Assembly (NCBI RefSeq): GCF_041886205.1
Contig: NZ_CP169029.1
Length of the DNA: 64,000 nucleotides
Reading direction: 5' to 3' (one strand)
From: Escherichia coli
Lineage (GTDB): Bacteria; Pseudomonadota; Gammaproteobacteria; Enterobacterales; Enterobacteriaceae
A program made the translations under genes and the position numbers. A model generated the notes under the pieces. The model was not told the origin of the DNA. It saw only the letters and a list, made by a program, of their open reading frames with translations, and made no database searches. This document shows positions 2,389 to 19,051 of this stretch, one piece after another. Positions within the stretch are counted from its first letter, which is position 1; each line of letters begins with the position of its first letter.

Positions 2389-3816
2389 CTAGACGATCTC
2401 TTCCGCGTACTGCCAAAGCGCTTTTAACAGCGCCACTTTTTCTTTATCGTCGGCATACTGCTGCGCCAGCATCTGAATCTCTTCTGCATAGCCTTGTAAA
2501 AACTCGGGTGTGAATACCTGGCGGCGGTGCTCCAGCCAACGTTGCTGCTCGGCATAATCCAGCGTCCCCGGGAAGTTGCGCGCCCGATAATTGAACAACA
2601 GCTTTTCAATCCGTTTATCAACAAAAGTGATATCCAGTGCCGGTAAATTACGCGGCTCGGTTTCCAGCACAATTTTCATTGCTGCACGATCGGCGTCACT
2701 GAAAAAGCCGTTATAAAGCTGTGCATCCACGTTATCTGAAGGCGTAAACGGTTCGGCTTCCGCGAATATCGCCACCACTTTTTCGCGCACTTGCGGATTT
2801 TCACGCAGAATTTTCAGGTTATTGAGGCAATGCTGACGATTAATTCCCAGTCGGTCGGCATCTTCCGGGCGTAGCGTATTCGCCTGGGCCAGCACCGGAC
2901 ATTTATTGATATGCACCAGCTTAACCGGAACGGCGGCGTTATCGCCAAGATCGGTTTTTGCGGTATATAAACGCTCGCGCAATGTGTCGCTATCCAGTTC
3001 CAGTAATGGCGAAATGTCTCCTGCCAAATCCACCATAATTACGGCATTGCGATTTTCAGGATGCCACGCCAGCGGTGCCACCCAGCTGGTATTGCCGCGC
3101 CATGCCCCAAACATTCCGGAAACGTGCACCAGGGGTTTCATCTGCGGAACATCAATCAACGCCATCAGTTTGTGTTTATTACGATGGGTAAAGAGATATT
3201 CAAACAGGCGTGGCTGACGCGTTTTTACCAGTTTCGCCATCGCAATAGTGGCGTACACATCAGCCATCGCATCGTGGGCGTTGCTATGTTCAATTCCATT
3301 CGCTTTGGTTAAATGCTCAAGGCGAAAGCTCGGTAGACCGTCATCATTTTCAGGCCAGTTTATTCCTTCCGGGCGCAGGGCATAACAGGCACGCATAACA
3401 TCCAGTAAATCCCAGCGCGAGTTATCATGCTGCCAGCTCCAGGCGTAAGGATCGTAGAAATTACGATAAAAAACGTTGCGTGTGACTTCGTCGTCGAAAC
3501 GCACATTGTTGTAGCCCAGAATACAGGTCTTCGGTACGTTAAAAAGCGAGTGAATACGGGCGGCAAACGCGGCTTCGTTTTCTCCTTTCGCCCGTGCTTC
3601 CTGCGGGGTAATACCGGTAATTAATACTGCTCCAGGCTGGGGCAAATAGTCATCCGCGGGCTTGCAGTAAAAGACTTCGGGTTCGCCGATGACATTGAAT
3701 TCGTTATCAGTGCGAATGGCTGCGAACTGTGCAGGGCGATCTAACGCGGGGTGCGTTCCAAAGGTTTCGTAATCGTGAAACAAAAAGGTAGATTGTTGCT
3801 TACCGTCATTCATCAT
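2389..3816 (-). CDS. sbcB: Exodeoxyribonuclease I
   Basis: Protein from the internal ATG begins MMNDGKQQSTFLFHDYETFG (475 aa); the track ORF has a 16-codon GTG extension. Confidence 0.92.
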   Translation of the reverse strand: MMNDGKQQSTFLFHDYETFGTHPALDRPAQFAAIRTDNEFNVIGEPEVFYCKPADDYLPQPGAVLITGITPQEARAKGENEAAFAARIHSLFNVPKTCILGYNNVRFDDEVTRNVFYRNFYDPYAWSWQHDNSRWDLLDVMRACYALRPEGINWPENDDGLPSFRLEHLTKANGIEHSNAHDAMADVYATIAMAKLVKTRQPRLFEYLFTHRNKHKLMALIDVPQMKPLVHVSGMFGAWRGNTSWVAPLAWHPENRNAVIMVDLAGDISPLLELDSDTLRERLYTAKTDLGDNAAVPVKLVHINKCPVLAQANTLRPEDADRLGINRQHCLNNLKILRENPQVREKVVAIFAEAEPFTPSDNVDAQLYNGFFSDADRAAMKIVLETEPRNLPALDITFVDKRIEKLLFNYRARNFPGTLDYAEQQRWLEHRRQVFTPEFLQGYAEEIQMLAQQYADDKEKVALLKALWQYAEEIV

Positions 3817-7640: not shown

Positions 7641-7860
7641 TTAACAACAGCCTTCTTCTGTATGCAGCAAGGCAAAAAGTTCTGTAACTCCATTGTTATT
7701 AACTGCACTGGTTACTAACACGTTGTGCGCTCCAGCTTCCCGTAACCAACTTTTCACCAAAGATATTTGTTCCATGCTGGCTAAATCTGCTTTGGTTACT
7801 ACTCCAATGACCGGGTGATTCATGGCCCGGTAGGGCGTTTTTACCTCTAATTCCTGCTTC
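7641..7860 (-). pseudogene. EutP/PduV-like GTPase C-terminal fragment (yoeF-like remnant)
   Basis: C-terminal about 70 aa (...VIGVVTKADLASMEQISLVKSWLREAGAHNVLVTSAVNNNGVTELF...) resembles the EutP/PduV family; no N-terminal domain; upstream part of the track ORF is antisense to the IS66 remnant. Confidence 0.5.
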
Positions 7861-7861
7861 A

Positions 7862-8053
7862 GCGCTGAGATTCCTGCTTGTTGCCGGAAAAGCAGGCACC
7901 TGCCGTCTGAACGGTATCGATCCGGAAGCGTATCTGCGCCATATTCTGAGCATACTGCCGGAATGGCCCTCCAACCGTGTTGACGAACTCCTGCCATGGA
8001 ACGTAGTTCTCACCAATAAATAAGCGTCAATACGGTGCTCCGTTGACGCTTAC
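7862..8053 (+). mobile_element. IS66-family transposase 3' remnant including the terminal repeat (yoeD-like)
   Basis: Translation ...GIDPEAYLRHILSILPEWPSNRVDELLPWNVVLTNK* matches IS66 TnpC C-termini; ends with ...CGTTGACGCTTAC, resembling the IS66 right inverted repeat. Confidence 0.6.
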
Positions 8054-8072
8054 TTTAATCCGTTTTCTGAGC

Positions 8073-8153
8073 TTAGATTTTTCTGTTCCTACCCAGACCG
8101 TGGATTTGGAATTCATTTTTTGTCAGGTCAATGCTAATCGTTAAAACGGCCAT
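8073..8153 (-). pseudogene. Short ORF with IS110-family-like transposase N-terminus, abutting the IS66 remnant
   Basis: GGAGG RBS then MAVLTISIDLTKNEFQIHG..., reminiscent of IS110/IS1111 transposase N-termini; only 26 codons. Recall-based, weak. Confidence 0.3.
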
Positions 8154-8437
8154 AACGCACCTCCACTGGAAGGTTTATCAGTAATATCCTACCGTTGCTT
8201 CATGGTCGGGGCGTCCATTCCATTATTATCGGTTTTCCTTTCTGTTTATAAATGAAAACGCCAGCTGTATTCAGGCTGGCGTCAGGGGAAATGAAGCCTG
8301 TTGAGTGAGATTCACCGGTTCTGGTGCAGAAGCTGCAGATGGCGCAGGGTAAGGACATCTTCTCTTGCCTGCTTAATACAGGACAACAGTGCTGTTTCTG
8401 TGGTTAATGGTACTATACCCTGCATCACTGCATTGTC

Positions 8438-8632
8438 TTACAGCAACTGGTGAGGGCTGGCATAAGTTGCCGGTGTTTCGGTAGAGTCACGGTCATCCAC
8501 CACGCGGAGTGAATAACCTTTTTCAGCGGCCTTATTAATCAGTTCAGTGATATTAACACCATCAATGTCAACGACAATGTGCCCCATATCCAGCGCCTGT
8601 ACGTTAACGCTGTCGGCTTCCAGTGTCATCAT
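8438..8632 (-). CDS. Hypothetical 64-aa protein in the prophage-remnant segment (possibly YeeW/YpjJ-like)
   Basis: ATG with GGAGG 4 nt upstream; acidic protein MMTLEADSVNVQALDMGHIVVDIDGVNITELINKAAEKGYSLRV...; sits where yeeW would be by synteny but I cannot confirm identity. Confidence 0.45.
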   Translation of the reverse strand: MMTLEADSVNVQALDMGHIVVDIDGVNITELINKAAEKGYSLRVVDDRDSTETPATYASPHQLL

Positions 8633-8756
8633 TTCGCCTCCGGATACTTACCCAGGGTAATGTTATTTACCGTTCTGTAATTGTCGCGGGTCATCAGGCC
8701 GGTCGCCCTGCGAGCCCGGAGGATATCGATGCTGTTTATTAACTGAGAGCGGGTAT

Positions 8757-9460
8757 GGGCGCTGCTTCGCAGACAGGCAGAACTTGATGGTATGCCTGCG
8801 ATCAATGCCAAACGTGTTTACCGGATCATGCGCCAGAATGCGCTGTTGCTTGAGCGAAAACCTGCTGTACCGCCATCGAAACGGGCACATACAGGCAGAG
8901 TGGCCGTGAAAGAAAGCAATCAGCGATGGTGCTCTGACGGGTTCGAGTTCTGCTGTGATAACGGAGAGAGACTGCGTGTCACGTTCGCGCTGGACTGCTG
9001 TGATCGTGAGGCACTGCACTGGGCGGTCACTACCGGCGGCTTCAACAGTGAAACAGTACAGGACGTCATGCTGGGAGCGGTGGAACGCCGCTTCGGCAAC
9101 GATCTTCCGTCGTCTCCAGTGGAGTGGCTGACGGATAATGGTTCATGCTACCGGGCTAATGAAACACGCCAGTTCGCCCGGATGTTGGGACTTGAACCGA
9201 AGAACACGGCGGTGCGGAGTCCGGAGAGTAACGGAATAGCAGAGAGCTTCGTGAAAACGATAAAGCGTGACTACATCAGTATCATGCCCAAACCAGACGG
9301 GTTAACGGCAGCAAAGAACCTTGCAGAGGCGTTCGAGCATTATAACGAATGGCATCCGCATAGTGCGCTGGGTTATCGCTCGCCACGGGAATATCTGCGG
9401 CAGCGGGCTTGTAATGGGTTAAGTGATAACAGATGTCTGGAAATATAGGGGCAAATCCAG
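8757..9460 (+). mobile_element. insD: IS2, 5'-truncated (insD C-terminal about 230 codons plus right terminal repeat)
   Basis: ORF 8792-9448 matches IS2 InsD (…[22 protein letters not shown]…SDNRCLEI); in-frame homology begins about 8757 after a stop; IS2 right end TGGATTTGCCCCTATATTTCCAGACATCTGTTATCACTTA present in reverse complement at 9421-9460. Confidence 0.85.
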
Positions 9461-9792
9461 CCACGAATGCGGATTTGTTTACGGCCTGCCAAGGAGTTGT
9501 CTGTTATCTCTACTCCGGGGATGTCCTGCAAATTATCGGCTATGGAGGCATTGGTGGAGTTCTGCAATGTTTGTTGGTCAATAACCTGTATAGTCGCCGG
9601 GCTTTCCCAAAGGTTGCTTGCCGAACGATTCGTGGTCACGACGAGCGTCTCTTCGTTGCTGATTTTTGTTTCTGAAGAAGTTGCGGTTGCAGTAGAAACT
9701 ATCCCAGAAATGCATAATGACAGAGTGGAAAGGATATAAATTCGACAAGGTATATTATATAACATTTCATCCCTCATTAATACAAAGTACAA
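9461..9792 (-). pseudogene. yoeA: TonB-dependent outer-membrane receptor N-terminal (plug) fragment interrupted by IS2 (yoeA-like)
   Basis: Minus-strand translation ...ETLVVTTNRSASNLWESPATIQVIDQQTLQNSTNASIADNLQDIPGVEITDNSLAGRKQIRIRG is a TonB-box/plug region; reading frame runs into the IS2 end. Confidence 0.7.
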
Positions 9793-9822
9793 ATGATTGC
9801 TGTAATGATAATTATTTTCATT
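9793..9822 (-). promoter_or_regulatory. Fur box at the promoter of the disrupted TonB-dependent receptor
   Basis: AATGATTGCTGTAATGATAATTATTTTCATT closely matches the Fur consensus GATAATGATAATCATTATC. Confidence 0.6.
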
Positions 9823-9971
9823 TATGTTCTCATATATCTATAATTATTGTCATCTTCATAAATTGTAAATATCAAACATTTTTGACCTTAATCATGTTTT
9901 TTGATAGATATTTTACGACTGAACATATCCGTCGTTTCCTCTGACTCGTGTCAGTCGGTCTCTGGTTGTAT

Positions 9972-10010
9972 CCACGGACCGCACTCTTGACATAAGAGTG
10001 CGGTCCGTGG
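9972..10010. repeat. Perfect 17-bp inverted repeat with 5-nt loop
   Basis: CCACGGACCGCACTCTT-gacat-AAGAGTGCGGTCCGTGG; no flanking T-run on either strand. Confidence 0.9.
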
Positions 10011-11436
10011 AAAACGGAGTTGAAAAAATGGTGTCTGAAAGAAGGTACCATCATTGTGATGACAAATACTTTGGCGTGGATAATGTAATTAATTGCTGAA
10101 ATTGACCGTATATGCGGTAAGACTCATATCAGTACCAGGTCCGGTTAATTGCTGATACTAATATAAACTTTTTACAAAAGGATGAATGCAGAAGGTTACT
10201 CTAATGGCCAGAGTGATGACAATGATGGTCAGACGTTGACCTGCAGAAACTGCATTTTAATTGGTCTATAAAGTCTGCAAGAGGAATCAGGGTCAGATCA
10301 GTGAGTCTTATCGCGGCCCGAAGCTATGACTGAAAGAAGGCTGGATACAGAATTGCAACAATTTGGCAATGTCAGAACACAGAAGCTTTGCAAGCAGGTG
10401 AAAGGTTATGTCTAGCAAAAGGAGTATATCAGAATATATCTACTGATGTACAAAACACAACAATAGCTTCATGATATATAAATACGTGATGACGAGTGGT
10501 ACTCCGCATGGTTATTTAACTTCTCAGCACCACTAATGATCCTGAGCAACTTCGTATTTGGGCCATTACCATGGAGTAGAAAGCTGTGTCTGAGAATGCA
10601 GAATTTGAGAAAAGAATTCGCTTTCTTGGAGAGCTTCTGAAAATGGCACGCTAACAACGTTTTGTTAAAAAATGTGAATCACTTGCCGGGGCTGCATTTT
10701 CTATTCGAGGAGAATGTTGACGTAGATATTACAGAAATCTCAGCGCATCAGGATAAACTGCTACCTTAGGTCAACCACCAAAAGAAAATACAATACGTCC
10801 AGTTTGTATGCCTTTAATAACACATCTTCTAAATGTTGAAGAATTATCCCGCCTGCTGAAGAACGTTGCTCTGAGTGTGATAAACCTTTTTATTCTTGAT
10901 GATGTCAGCGAGAAGATGGAATATATCCCCGACTGGGTCGTGGTTACCCGGTTAAACATCTGGTGGCGCTAATAAATCTGGCAAGTCACATTCTGTTGAA
11001 TGCTGTGACAGTGCCTTACCGAGAGAGCGAAATTGTGGTGTTCTAGTGCATAGTCGCCACCATTCCGGATAATTCTATTACGTTGTTTTACAAGTTCTTT
11101 TACAGCGCAGATCTGTCGCTGACGTTGAATCAATAGCCTGGATTTCAGAACACAATGCCCGTTTGCTGGTTGTTCCGGCAGTAGCATTAATTCATTATCT
11201 GAATGAAATGTGTCAATCCACAGAAACCGCTGTCAATGACGCATTTTGTCGGACGTTAACACGAGAAAGTCTGGCTATTCCGTAATGCCATCTTATTTCG
11301 TAATGGATTGAGAATGCTGGATTTTTAATTATATTACGCGCAGTATTAATCGCGTAAATGTTTTGCGGTCAGCAACGGTGGGGGATCCATTGTTCTGTTC
11401 AATGAATACCATCATACATTTGAATCAGGAGTCGGT

Positions 11437-11982
11437 ATGATGATTTTGGTGACGGGGGGCGCACGGAGCGGGAAGAGTCGCCACGCAGAGGCGCTTATTG
11501 GGGACTCTTCACAGGTTCTGTATATCGCTACCTCGCAAATCCTTGATGATGAGATGGCTGCACGGATAGAACATCATCGGCAAGGCCGCCCGGAGCACTG
11601 GCGCACAGTGGAGCGCTGGCAACATCTTGATGAATTAATTCATGCAGACATTAACCCGAATGAGGTTGTGTTGCTTGAATGCGTTACCACAATGGTGACT
11701 AATCTGTTGTTTGATTATGGCGGCGATAAAGACCCTGATGAATGGGATTATCAGGCGATGGAACAGGCGATTAATGCTGAGATTCAGTCGTTGATTGCTG
11801 CCTGCCAACGTTGCCCCGCAAAGGTTGTATTAGTGACTAACGAAGTGGGAATGGGGATTGTGCCGGAGAGTCGTCTGGCACGACATTTTCGTGATATTGC
11901 CGGGCGGGTAAATCAGCAGTTGGCCGCTGCGGCAAATGAAGTATGGCTGGTGGTTTCGGGTATTGGAGTAAAAATCAAATGA
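11437..11982 (+). CDS. cobU: Adenosylcobinamide kinase / adenosylcobinamide-phosphate guanylyltransferase
   Basis: 181 aa, P-loop GGARSGKS; first gene of cobUST; contains a Chi sequence GCTGGTGG. Confidence 0.92.
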
Positions 11983-12722
11983 GTAAATTATTTTGGGCGA
12001 TGCTCTCATTTATTACGCGTCTGCCTGTACCGCGTCGCTGGTCCCAGGGACTGGATTTCGAGCATTATTCTCGCGGTATTATTACTTTTCCTTTGATTGG
12101 ATTATTGCTTGGCGCGATTAGCGGGCTGGTCTTCATGGTGCTGCAGGCATGGTGTGGCGCACCACTGGCGGCACTGTTTAGCGTACTTGTGCTGGTGCTG
12201 ATGACCGGGGGATTCCATCTGGACGGCCTCGCTGATACCTGTGATGGCGTATTTTCTGCACGTAGCCGCGATCGCATGTTGGAAATCATGCGTGATAGCC
12301 GTTTAGGCACCCACGGCGGTCTGGCATTGATTTTTGTGGTACTGGCAAAGATTCTGGTGTTAAGCGAGTTGGCTCTGCGTGGCGAATCGATCCTTGCATC
12401 GCTGGCGGCAGCATGTGCGGTCAGCCGCGGGACTGCCGCATTATTGATGTATCGTCATCGTTATGCGCGGGAAGAAGGGCTTGGCAATGTGTTCATTGGC
12501 AAAATTGATGGGCGACAAACCTGCGTCACACTCGGCTTAGCCGCTATTTTTGCTGCCGTATTATTGCCGGGTATGCATGGTGTGGCTGCTATGGTGGTGA
12601 CGATGGTGGCGATTTTCATCCTCGGTCAGCTTCTCAAACGTACGCTGGGCGGGCAAACGGGCGATACGCTGGGAGCAGCCATAGAGCTTGGTGAACTGGT
12701 CTTCCTGCTGGCACTGCTATAA
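11979..12722 (+). CDS. cobS: Cobalamin-5'-phosphate synthase
   Basis: 247-aa membrane protein from ATG overlapping the cobU stop (ATGA). Confidence 0.9.
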
Positions 12723-12733
12723 AGAGACGTGAG

Positions 12734-13813
12734 ATGCAAATACTTGCCGATTTACTGAATACGATCCCAGCCATCGATTCTACCGCTATGTCGCGTGCAC
12801 AACGGCATATTGACGGGTTACTCAAACCTGTTGGTAGCCTGGGAAAGCTGGAGGTGCTTGCCATACAACTGGCAGGAATGCCGGGGTTGAATGGCATACC
12901 GCATGTGGGCAAAAAAGCGGTACTGGTTATGTGTGCCGATCACGGCGTCTGGGAGGAAGGGGTCGCTATTTCTCCAAAAGAAGTGACAGCCATACAGGCT
13001 GAAAATATGACCCGTGGAACAACCGGCGTGTGTGTGCTGGCAGAACAAGCGGGCGCTAACGTCCACGTAATTGATGTTGGTATTGATACTGCTGAGCCTA
13101 TCCCCGGGCTTATCAACATGCATGTCGCACGAGGTAGCGGCAATATTGCTTCAGCTCCGGCAATGAGTCGCCGTCAGGCTGAAAAGTTGCTTTTGGACGT
13201 CATATGTTATACGCAGGAGCTGGCAAAAAACGGTGTCACGCTGTTTGGTGTAGGTGAACTGGGGATGGCAAACACGACACCGGCAGCAGCAATAGTCAGC
13301 ACAATCACTGGCCGGAATCCTGAAGAAGTGGTTGGGATTGGCGCAAACCTGCCGACAGATAAACTGGCTAATAAAATTGATGTTGTGCGTCGGGCGATTA
13401 CGTTGAATCAACCAAATCCTCAGGATGGTGTTGATGTCCTGGCAAAAGTGGGTGGATTTGATTTGGTCGGAATAGCTGGAGTGATGTTAGGTGCTGCTTC
13501 CTGCGGTTTACCCGTGTTGCTGGATGGATTTCTTTCTTATGCTGCTGCGCTCGCAGCCTGCCAGATGTCTCCTGCGATCAAACCGTATCTCATTCCTTCT
13601 CACCTGTCGGCAGAAAAAGGCGCGCGTATAGCGCTCTCGCATTTGGGGCTGGAGCCTTATCTCAATATGGAGATGCGTTTAGGTGAGGGGAGTGGCGCAG
13701 CTCTGGCGATGCCCATCATCGAAGCTGCCTGTGCGATATACAACAACATGGGCGAACTTGCTGCCAGTAATATTGTTCTACCGGGGAATACGACTTCTGA
13801 TTTGAACAGTTAA
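12734..13813 (+). CDS. cobT: Nicotinate-nucleotide--dimethylbenzimidazole phosphoribosyltransferase
   Basis: 359 aa; completes cobUST. Confidence 0.92.
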
Positions 13814-18998: not shown

Positions 18999-19051
18999 AC
19001 GACAAAATGCAGATTATTTCAGCAAACGATTTCAAATTTAAAAAACAGGCT

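Follow-up and report, generated by a model that had tools for sequence, protein, structure and literature searches.

The locus

The subject here is positions 9830-11430 of a 64-kb stretch of Escherichia coli DNA (the whole of which is termed the window), 1.6 kb of AT-rich sequence directly upstream of cobU, with the promoter of the TonB-dependent receptor gene yoeA at its other end. A sequence-only reading of the window had singled it out as lacking credible open reading frames (ORFs), and had proposed that it is eroded, horizontally acquired DNA in which unannotated small RNAs or very small proteins might be sought. The observation is confirmed, and very probably the stretch is non-functional, decaying DNA: a mosaic of fragments of insertion sequences (ISs) of the IS1111, IS66 and IS4 families, sitting at the edge of an island and abutting the leftover of a cob leader. 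The homologies, junctions and genome distribution on which this rests come from the comparisons made here; Fur binding, RNA polymerase binding and the RNAs of the yoeH segment are taken from the literature.

The DNA itself is already known. In K-12 it is annotated as the pseudogenes yoeH (b4641; 9981-10139 on window coordinates), yoeG (b4640; 10508-11040) and yeeH (b4639; 11047-11133), at the cobU-proximal end of the cryptic prophage CP4-44, whose annotated end falls at ~11181 of the window; to the left of them lie the broken receptor gene yoeA and an IS2, and transcripts of yoeH have been published. The K-12 record names no product for any of the three pseudogenes. Judged by the alignments below, yoeH is the C-terminus of an IS1111-family transposase, yoeG is the N-terminus of an IS66 tnpC joined to an IS4 fragment, and yeeH is the remainder of that IS4 fragment. 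What is added here is a finer dissection, with yoeG resolved into two unrelated fragments and yoeH found with a degraded relic of a seekRNA; this relic, degraded yet recognisable, is the only new detail of the stretch. The features are as follows, in window coordinates.

9766-9860, no strand assigned: promoter of yoeA, the receptor gene, with its cluster of Fur boxes, the limits being derived from the published -48 centre
9793-9943, minus strand: DNA native to the upstream side of the gene for the TonB-dependent receptor, by plasmid homology
9815-9844, plus strand: sigma-70 promoter-like TTTTCA-18-TATAAT (10/12 consensus matches), facing yoeH and cobU and overlapping the Fur boxes
9971-10011, no strand assigned: perfect 18-bp inverted repeat with a 5-nt spacer, arms 9971-9988 and 9994-10011, 100% complementary
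9978-10139, plus strand: last 54 codons of an IS1111-family (IS110 superfamily) DEDD transposase, the K-12 pseudogene yoeH, by tblastn
10140-10398, plus strand: 3' non-coding region of the same IS1111-family element, aligning with the non-coding regions of five IS1111-family elements
10214-10376, plus strand: homologue of the seekRNA-domain core, by covariance model
10393-10475, plus strand: 3' end of an IS66-family tnpB, about residues 101-126, by nucleotide identity and tblastn
10508-10951, plus strand: first 151 codons of an IS66-family tnpC, encoding the leucine zipper and zinc finger and making up most of yoeG, by tblastn
10586-10654, plus strand: 22-codon ORF with a GTG start, not a gene
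10808-10972, plus strand: 54-codon ORF, an accidental chimera, called 'hypothetical protein' WP_001128468.1 in some genomes by the Prokaryotic Genome Annotation Pipeline (PGAP)
10945-11133, plus strand: 63 codons from the interior of an IS4-family DDE transposase gene, interrupted by one in-frame stop and corresponding to yeeH and the end of yoeG, by protein comparison
11141-11285, plus strand: remnant (3' third) of a truncated cbiG-like ORF, a pseudogene labelled 'cobalamin biosynthesis protein', with which the ancestral DNA outside the island begins
11286-11436, plus strand: cobU leader, with promoter-like TTGAGA-16-TATATT at 11308-11335 and Shine-Dalgarno AGGAG at 11427-11431

The low GC content is real and not extreme. 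It is 0.401 at 9830-11430, against 0.505 in cobU, 0.535 in cobS and 0.511 in cobT, and against a mean for the whole window of 0.484 (standard deviation 0.043, in windows of 1601 bp); the stretch ranks 41st lowest among 1248 windows of equal length, and 0.37 is reached near 19000. As had been stated, no ORF exceeds 75 codons, the longest from start to stop within the stretch being 72 aa (a 75-aa ORF at 9717-9944 starts outside it). Since the longest ORF in 300 shuffles of the stretch is 76 +/- 19 aa, with 52% of the shuffles reaching the observed value, the ORF content is what is expected of non-coding sequence of such composition. No Pfam match was obtained in the six frames of 9793-11436 with stops masked, and the relics were recognised only via DNA and tblastn comparison with annotated plasmids together with protein search.

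Fragments of three insertion sequences

The leftmost fragment, 9978-10139, aligns by tblastn with residues 284-337 of the 339-aa transposase of an intact IS1111-family element (L007), with 46% identity (E 1.6e-8) and two in-frame stops. The L007 transposase itself matches NCBIfam NF033542, 'IS110 family RNA-guided transposase', with E 1.5e-99. To the left of ~9978 no homology to an IS1111 transposase was detectable at either the DNA or the protein level, and the complete DEDD (RuvC-like) enzyme of ~330-350 aa that an active IS1111 element would need is not present here. Nor are the two ends of such an element with their subterminal inverted repeats, the left being absent and the right falling short: homology stops at ~10398, so that the last ~17 bp of the family, including the right subterminal repeat, are missing, and the place that GGATGCGTTCAT occupies in the intact L007 element is taken here by IS66 tnpB sequence. 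The non-coding region that encodes the seekRNA is present, as a degraded copy. With ISEc11-type IS1111 elements the relic therefore shares the transposase C-terminal motif, the downstream non-coding region and conserved helices, and it differs from them in having lost five-sixths of the transposase gene, both termini, some base pairs and folding stability, and in having acquired stops. Its identity with the closest intact element found is no more than 64%, and so it derives from a different family member.

Next comes the fragment of an IS66-family element. The segment 10393-10944 has 71% nucleotide identity (E 9e-77) with a plasmid-borne IS66-family element (L006 3001-3571), and by tblastn TnpB residues 107-124 match 10412-10465 and TnpC residues 1-151 match with 47% amino-acid identity (E 1.4e-23). 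The ancestral tnpC reading path can be followed through 10508-~10705, ~10690-10787, 10840-10884 and 10889-10951, with at least three changes of frame and several stops. Like IS66-family elements, which are organised tnpA-tnpB-tnpC, the relic keeps the order of tnpB 3' end, spacer and tnpC start; unlike them it is without tnpA, the 5' part of tnpB, the DDE_Tnp_IS66 domain (residues 178-459 of the intact protein) and the ends of the element. Of the three genes, then, there is about the last 26 codons of tnpB and codons 1-151 of a frameshifted tnpC.

The third fragment has 68-74% amino-acid identity to residues ~167-229 of the IS4-family transposases P0009, P0010, P0012 and P0013, with E values of 1e-23 to 1e-26; P0012 matches NCBIfam NF033592 and the Pfam domains Nterm_IS4 and DDE_Tnp_1. 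The 63 residues that remain, about one-seventh of the protein, surround the start of the DDE domain; both ends have been cut at junctions that are not those of an IS, and neither Nterm_IS4, nor a complete DDE domain, nor terminal inverted repeats are there. PGAP annotates it as 'IS4 family transposase, internal stop, missing N- and C-terminus'. Some 800 E. coli records hold only an ~80%-identical copy of 10945-11140, at another chromosomal site (for instance near 2.58 Mb in an MG1655 derivative), and there is thus a paralogous IS4-family relic elsewhere in E. coli.

How were these pieces brought together? At ~9978 the left junction lies inside the IS1111 transposase gene. The next, at 10393-10398, falls ~17 bp before the right end of the IS1111 family would be reached, and its 5 bp, GCAGG, are shared with IS66 tnpB. 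At 10945-10951 tnpC codon ~150 passes to IS4 codon ~167, and at 11140/11141 IS4 codon ~229 passes to the cbiG-like ORF. None of the four junctions is at an IS terminus, which marks them as deletion scars, and we infer that a cluster of ISs was trimmed by successive deletions. An IS1111 right end at ~10412, as a true insertion junction, had been considered and was given up when a three-way comparison moved the crossover to 10393-10398, with the IS terminus missing. A 24-mer across the junction between the IS4 fragment and the cbiG-like ORF had no match when one genome per species was scanned. All told ~1.16 kb (9978-11140) consists of truncated, frameshifted and stop-riddled pieces of three ISs, and with their place on the margin of a variable island, which some E. 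coli lack, the notion of eroded, horizontally acquired DNA is borne out.

The perfect palindrome at 9971-10011 straddles the left breakpoint of the IS1111-family relic. Translated on either strand it gives the same transposase motif (TALLT.ECGPW and TALLCQECGPWI), and it may possibly have come from a template-switch event. There is no T-run on either side of it and so it is not an intrinsic terminator; the sole Rfam match at E up to 1 is a chance microRNA hit on this palindrome. An IS3-family element of strain B771 abuts the sequence at 9978, within the left arm.

The locus in K-12 and other E. coli genomes

The window and K-12 MG1655 have the same DNA here, with two mismatches in 2297 bp over 8750-11046 and none (100% identity) over 11043-13000, and yoeG and yeeH are found in the window as exact copies. 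One of the two differences is at 10135, which is C in the window and T in six other strains; K-12 yoeH differs at the corresponding codon. Over 8750-13000 the sole structural difference from K-12 is the latter's IS5H, which splits yoeG from yeeH in K-12 and is absent from its target, 11043-11046, in the window. The IS2 in yoeA of the window is truncated, as in E. coli B. The PGAP annotation of E. coli B runs from a receptor fragment, via a 54-aa 'hypothetical protein', an 'IS4 family transposase' fragment and a 'cobalamin biosynthesis protein' fragment, to cobU.

At least part of 9700-11500 is found in 5404 of 5426 complete E. coli genomes, with coverage of 80% or more in 2789; the IS1111 relic is covered at 80% or more in 2836 of the 5426, and the IS4 relic occurs at 95% or higher identity in 3656 records. 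On comparison with other E. coli genomes, as had been proposed, three arrangements of the locus can be told apart: pdu-pocR-riboswitch-cbiG'-cobU, pduV' joined directly to cobU, and island-cobU, which is that of the window. In the minimal, pduV'-cobU type (L004 5830-6190) a pduV fragment is joined to the cobU leader, corresponding to a passage from 7815 to 11250 of the window, and the sequence from ~11250 onward is common to all three. The left boundary of the relic block shifts between strains, coinciding with other ISs such as IS3, IS66 and IS5/ISKpn26.

Homology with pdu-positive E. coli starts at 11141. In those strains a complete 145-aa ORF follows pocR and a cobalamin riboswitch and precedes cobU; its residues 1-118 match the N-terminus of the cobalt-precorrin 5A hydrolase CbiG (NF004463, E 4e-19). 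Identification of the remnant as the 3' end of cbiP, an idea suggested by the Salmonella operon, was ruled out by this NCBIfam match. The leader in the window is collinear over 11141-11436 with the last third of that ORF and with the DNA between it and cobU, whereas the riboswitch, pocR and the first ~90 codons of the ORF are replaced here by the island. A search of 8500-12500 with Rfam (E up to 1) found no cobalamin riboswitch (family RF00174). In the pdu-positive L003 and L005 (5342-6172), pocR, the riboswitch and the 145-aa ORF stand directly before cobUST, with no other cbi genes.

The two working ends

In the scheme that we favour, deletion-trimmed fragments of three ISs lie at the cobU-proximal edge of a variable island (CP4-44 in K-12), with working elements at the two ends only: the Fur-repressed yoeA promoter on the left, and on the right a sigma-70 promoter and a ribosome-binding site. 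The latter pair would now serve cobUST because the island has displaced the original promoter that was controlled by pocR and the riboswitch. We infer that the interior is without function.

At the left end, the receptor gene is encoded on the minus strand from an ATG at 9765 and, in this genome, is interrupted by IS2; upstream of it stands a pair of repeats resembling Fur boxes, ATAATTATTTTCAT (9808-9821) and ATAATTATTGTCAT (9840-9853). Among the predicted E. coli clusters tabulated by Chen et al. 2007 (PMC2189734) the Fur cluster upstream of yoeA is, at 27.4 bits, the joint strongest with that of gpmA; it comprises 12 sites over 95 bp, centred at -48, and was confirmed by gel shift (PMC2189734). 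Regulation of yoeA by Fur has been reported further (PMC4676285, PMC10164565). That the DNA next to it is native to the receptor gene is apparent from the plasmid pWP4-S18-ESBL-07_1 (L015), on which an intact receptor gene of 715 aa is, in its first part and the DNA upstream, 99.4% identical to 9460-9943; the homology stops at 9943, where the plasmid has an IS3-family element. The receptor, broken by IS2 here and in K-12, is intact in many strains and on this IncF/IncI plasmid (L015 2159-4306); intact copies of 715 aa lie beside the same block of IS relics in strains N54, GN04171 and O157 (L016-L018).

At the right end the promoter-like hexamers at 11308-11335 match the consensus at 10/12 positions, and Shimada et al. 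2014 (PMC3946193) give the same hexamers for the constitutive promoter of cobUST. Directly downstream of the cobUST -10, at 11335-11360, is a palindrome, TTACGCG-N10-CGCGTAA, which is present in the leader of all locus types and which, going by its symmetry, could be a hairpin or a binding site.

Transcription of the interior

In genomic SELEX (systematic evolution of ligands by exponential enrichment) with RpoD holoenzyme, Shimada et al. 2014 (PMC3946193) listed bound promoters that are placed here at 9815-9844 ('yoeH'), 10447-10475 ('yoeG') and 11308-11335 (cobUST); the hexamers of the first are those of their 'yoeH' constitutive promoter, which bears an H-NS flag. Our own promoter scan recovers the first and the last of these three sites. 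As to RNA, an antisense transcript of yoeH of ~150-200 nt was detected by northern blot, visible only in the absence of RNase III activity (Magan et al. 2019, PMC6847712); it is Rho-terminated at iRAP#6850 and extends to ~700 nt under bicyclomycin (PMC6847712). A sense yoeH transcript is depicted in the same paper, with citation of earlier work (PMC6847712), and the antisense RNA is treated there as pervasive transcription curbed by Rho and RNase III (PMC6847712).

The suggestion that small RNAs might be found here has partial support: RNAs from both strands of yoeH are on record (PMC6847712) and a degraded seekRNA homologue is present, but the RNAs are described as pervasive antisense transcription and not as regulators. 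With respect to the features of a small-RNA gene, there are promoter-like sites, and there is no Rfam match, no notable intrinsic terminator and no excess folding stability. The stretch is transcribed like the pervasive transcription of AT-rich acquired DNA. Being AT-rich, the interior would have promoter-like sites and low-level transcription of both strands, held in check by H-NS, Rho and RNase III. With published transcripts and with homology to transposases, the stretch is at any rate not conserved intergenic sequence lacking both transcripts and coding homology, the finding that was to count against the sequence-only reading.

Might the interior instead be an extended cis-regulatory leader, with 9815-9844 and 10447-10475 reading through to cobUST, possibly in part under control by Fur or H-NS? 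Both sites are on the cobU strand and, as just noted, both are listed as binding sites of the RpoD holoenzyme (PMC3946193). Between them and cobU the only terminator-like hairpin is a weak one, at 10242-10254. Several promoters for E. coli cobUST were reportedly described by Lawrence and Roth (1995). However, in K-12 a 1.2-kb IS5 at 11043-11046 separates the sites from cobU with cobUST still functional, many strains that are without most of the stretch keep the proximal promoter at 11308-11335, and untranslated read-through over 1.5 kb would face Rho. We consider such a leader unlikely.

The seekRNA relic

The 3' non-coding region of IS1111-family elements encodes a seekRNA that guides the choice of target (Siddiquee et al. 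2024, PMC11187229). With a covariance model built from five IS1111-family elements, the relic of the window being left out of training, a single match was obtained in the 64 kb, at 10214-10376 on the plus strand, over the full length of the model and with 66.9 bits (E 2e-16). The training sequences score 140-170 bits, so the relic has less than half the score of active copies. Of 41 consensus pairs it keeps 35, against 40 in an intact element, and its folding energy is no better than that of shuffles (z +0.77, where the intact element has -1.85). Since Rfam misses intact IS1111-family elements too, its silence on the relic is uninformative.

The intact element used for comparison, at L007 1889-3315, is inserted in an IS66-family tnpC and has the subterminal repeats ATGAACGCATCC and GGATGCGTTCAT. 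A loop in its non-coding region, at 3154-3167, reads ATCTGCT/CTGGAGA, the complement of the right flank and then a copy of the left flank, which fits the published logic of seekRNA guides. By analogy the original target of the relic was sought from its guide loop, and there was no candidate in the sequences searched.

Some observations weigh against regarding the interior as inert. The relic of the seekRNA domain can still be recognised from end to end. At 10163-10415 there is only one variable site among eight genomes, with a 189-bp run free of single-nucleotide polymorphisms, though a run of such length is expected by chance (estimated P about 0.3) and the sites are too few to test for selection on the RNA core. 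In addition, deletion of yoeH is among 24 knockouts with raised ofloxacin tolerance (PMC12363166); if specific, this listing would imply some activity, and we regard it as weak evidence.

Do they amount to a case for a functional non-coding RNA? The yoeH segment would on that account be either a regulatory pair of sense and antisense transcripts, or an exapted relic of a seekRNA, a guide of the bridge-RNA type, still acting with IS1111-family transposases supplied in trans. Transcripts from both strands are reported (PMC6847712), the full-length match to the model stands, some helices differ on both sides from those of the intact element and yet still pair, a seekRNA is reported not to be limited strictly to transposases that are close relatives (Siddiquee et al., PMC11187229), and IS1111-family elements are present on E. 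coli and Shigella plasmids. Yet 6 of the 41 consensus pairs are broken, the folding and the score are those of a decayed copy, the right end and subterminal repeat are missing, and the locus has no cognate transposase; the antisense RNA is seen only in an RNase III mutant, with its discoverers classing it as pervasive transcription (PMC6847712), and no Rfam family matches, for what that is worth given the blindness of Rfam to intact elements. A working RNA here seems to us very improbable. By a still more specific speculation, to be entertained only as a long shot, the sense yoeH transcript may carry a full-length, mutated seekRNA in about half of E. coli genomes, and such an orphan guide could bind plasmid-borne IS1111-family transposases, as a decoy or by misdirecting recombination. 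If true, there would be a chromosomal 'fossil guide RNA' with residual activity.

Short ORFs and the prophage label

Returning to the short ORFs, that of 54 codons at 10808-10972 and that of 22 codons at 10586-10654 are both present as described, and neither has turned out to be the small-protein gene for which it was put forward. The 22-codon ORF, MSENAEFEKRIRFLGELLKMAR, aligns in frame with TnpC residues 27-48, MAENAELQNRIRILEEQMKLAR, and is an in-frame piece of the IS66 relic. The 54-codon ORF is a chimera by accident. It is in the ancestral TnpC frame only at 10889-10951; over 10840-10884 the ancestral frame differs from its own (RIIPPAEERCSECDK versus KVIPADEERCPECNE), and its last codons are out of frame, within the IS4 fragment. 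Three variable sites in eight genomes give no sign of purifying selection, with no statistical power to detect it. The statement that the flagged ORFs are without ribosome-binding sites applies to the 54-codon ORF, which has no Shine-Dalgarno-like motif, and not to the 22-codon one, with GGAG 9 nt before its GTG. In other genomes there is a protein, P0001, from a 141-aa ORF that fuses a piece resembling (by eye) the C-terminus of an integrase or recombinase to the exact 54-aa ORF; from this fusion there is another left boundary near 10808-10829.

That IS debris has given rise to a real small-protein gene at one or more of the short ORFs, among them a third at 10662-10769 (35 codons), has an exceedingly slight chance of being right. 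The PGAP call in some genomes, the intactness of the 54-codon ORF in all eight genomes compared and the GGAG of the 22-codon ORF can be cited for it. Against that, all three are parts of the decayed, frameshifted IS66 tnpC reading path, the 54-codon ORF is without a ribosome-binding site and spans a deletion junction, the ORF lengths are those of shuffled sequence, and protein search gave no homologues beyond the same locus and the chimeric fusion.

Degraded bacteriophage DNA, as the placing of the stretch inside CP4-44 by the K-12 annotation would have it, is hardly credible, every recognisable coding remnant being that of a transposase and 9793-10944 having no meaningful match among 50,697 phage records, save 182 bp of 100% identity in a 2.5-kb record resembling E. 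coli DNA.

Relevance

Read as the decaying edge of an island, the stretch is of little importance in itself, and serves as a textbook example of how ISs accumulate and deletions trim them. What survive are the elements that the flanking genes need, the Fur-controlled receptor promoter and the replacement promoter for cobUST. There are practical points: the 54-codon 'hypothetical protein' of automatic annotation is an accidental ORF, and the K-12 pseudogene names mask both the two unrelated transposase fragments of yoeG and the seekRNA relic of yoeH.

The phage record mentioned is 'Campylobacter phage B14' in GenBank (MG065683.1, 2504 bp), in which the 182 bp are identical to 10763-10944, within the IS66 relic; the match suggests that MG065683.1 contains E. 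coli DNA. Several 'plasmids' in PLSDB, of 0.4-4.9 Mb and with one of them labelled Klebsiella pneumoniae, carry 9793-10944 at 99% identity, and probably represent whole or partial chromosomes deposited under the heading of plasmids.

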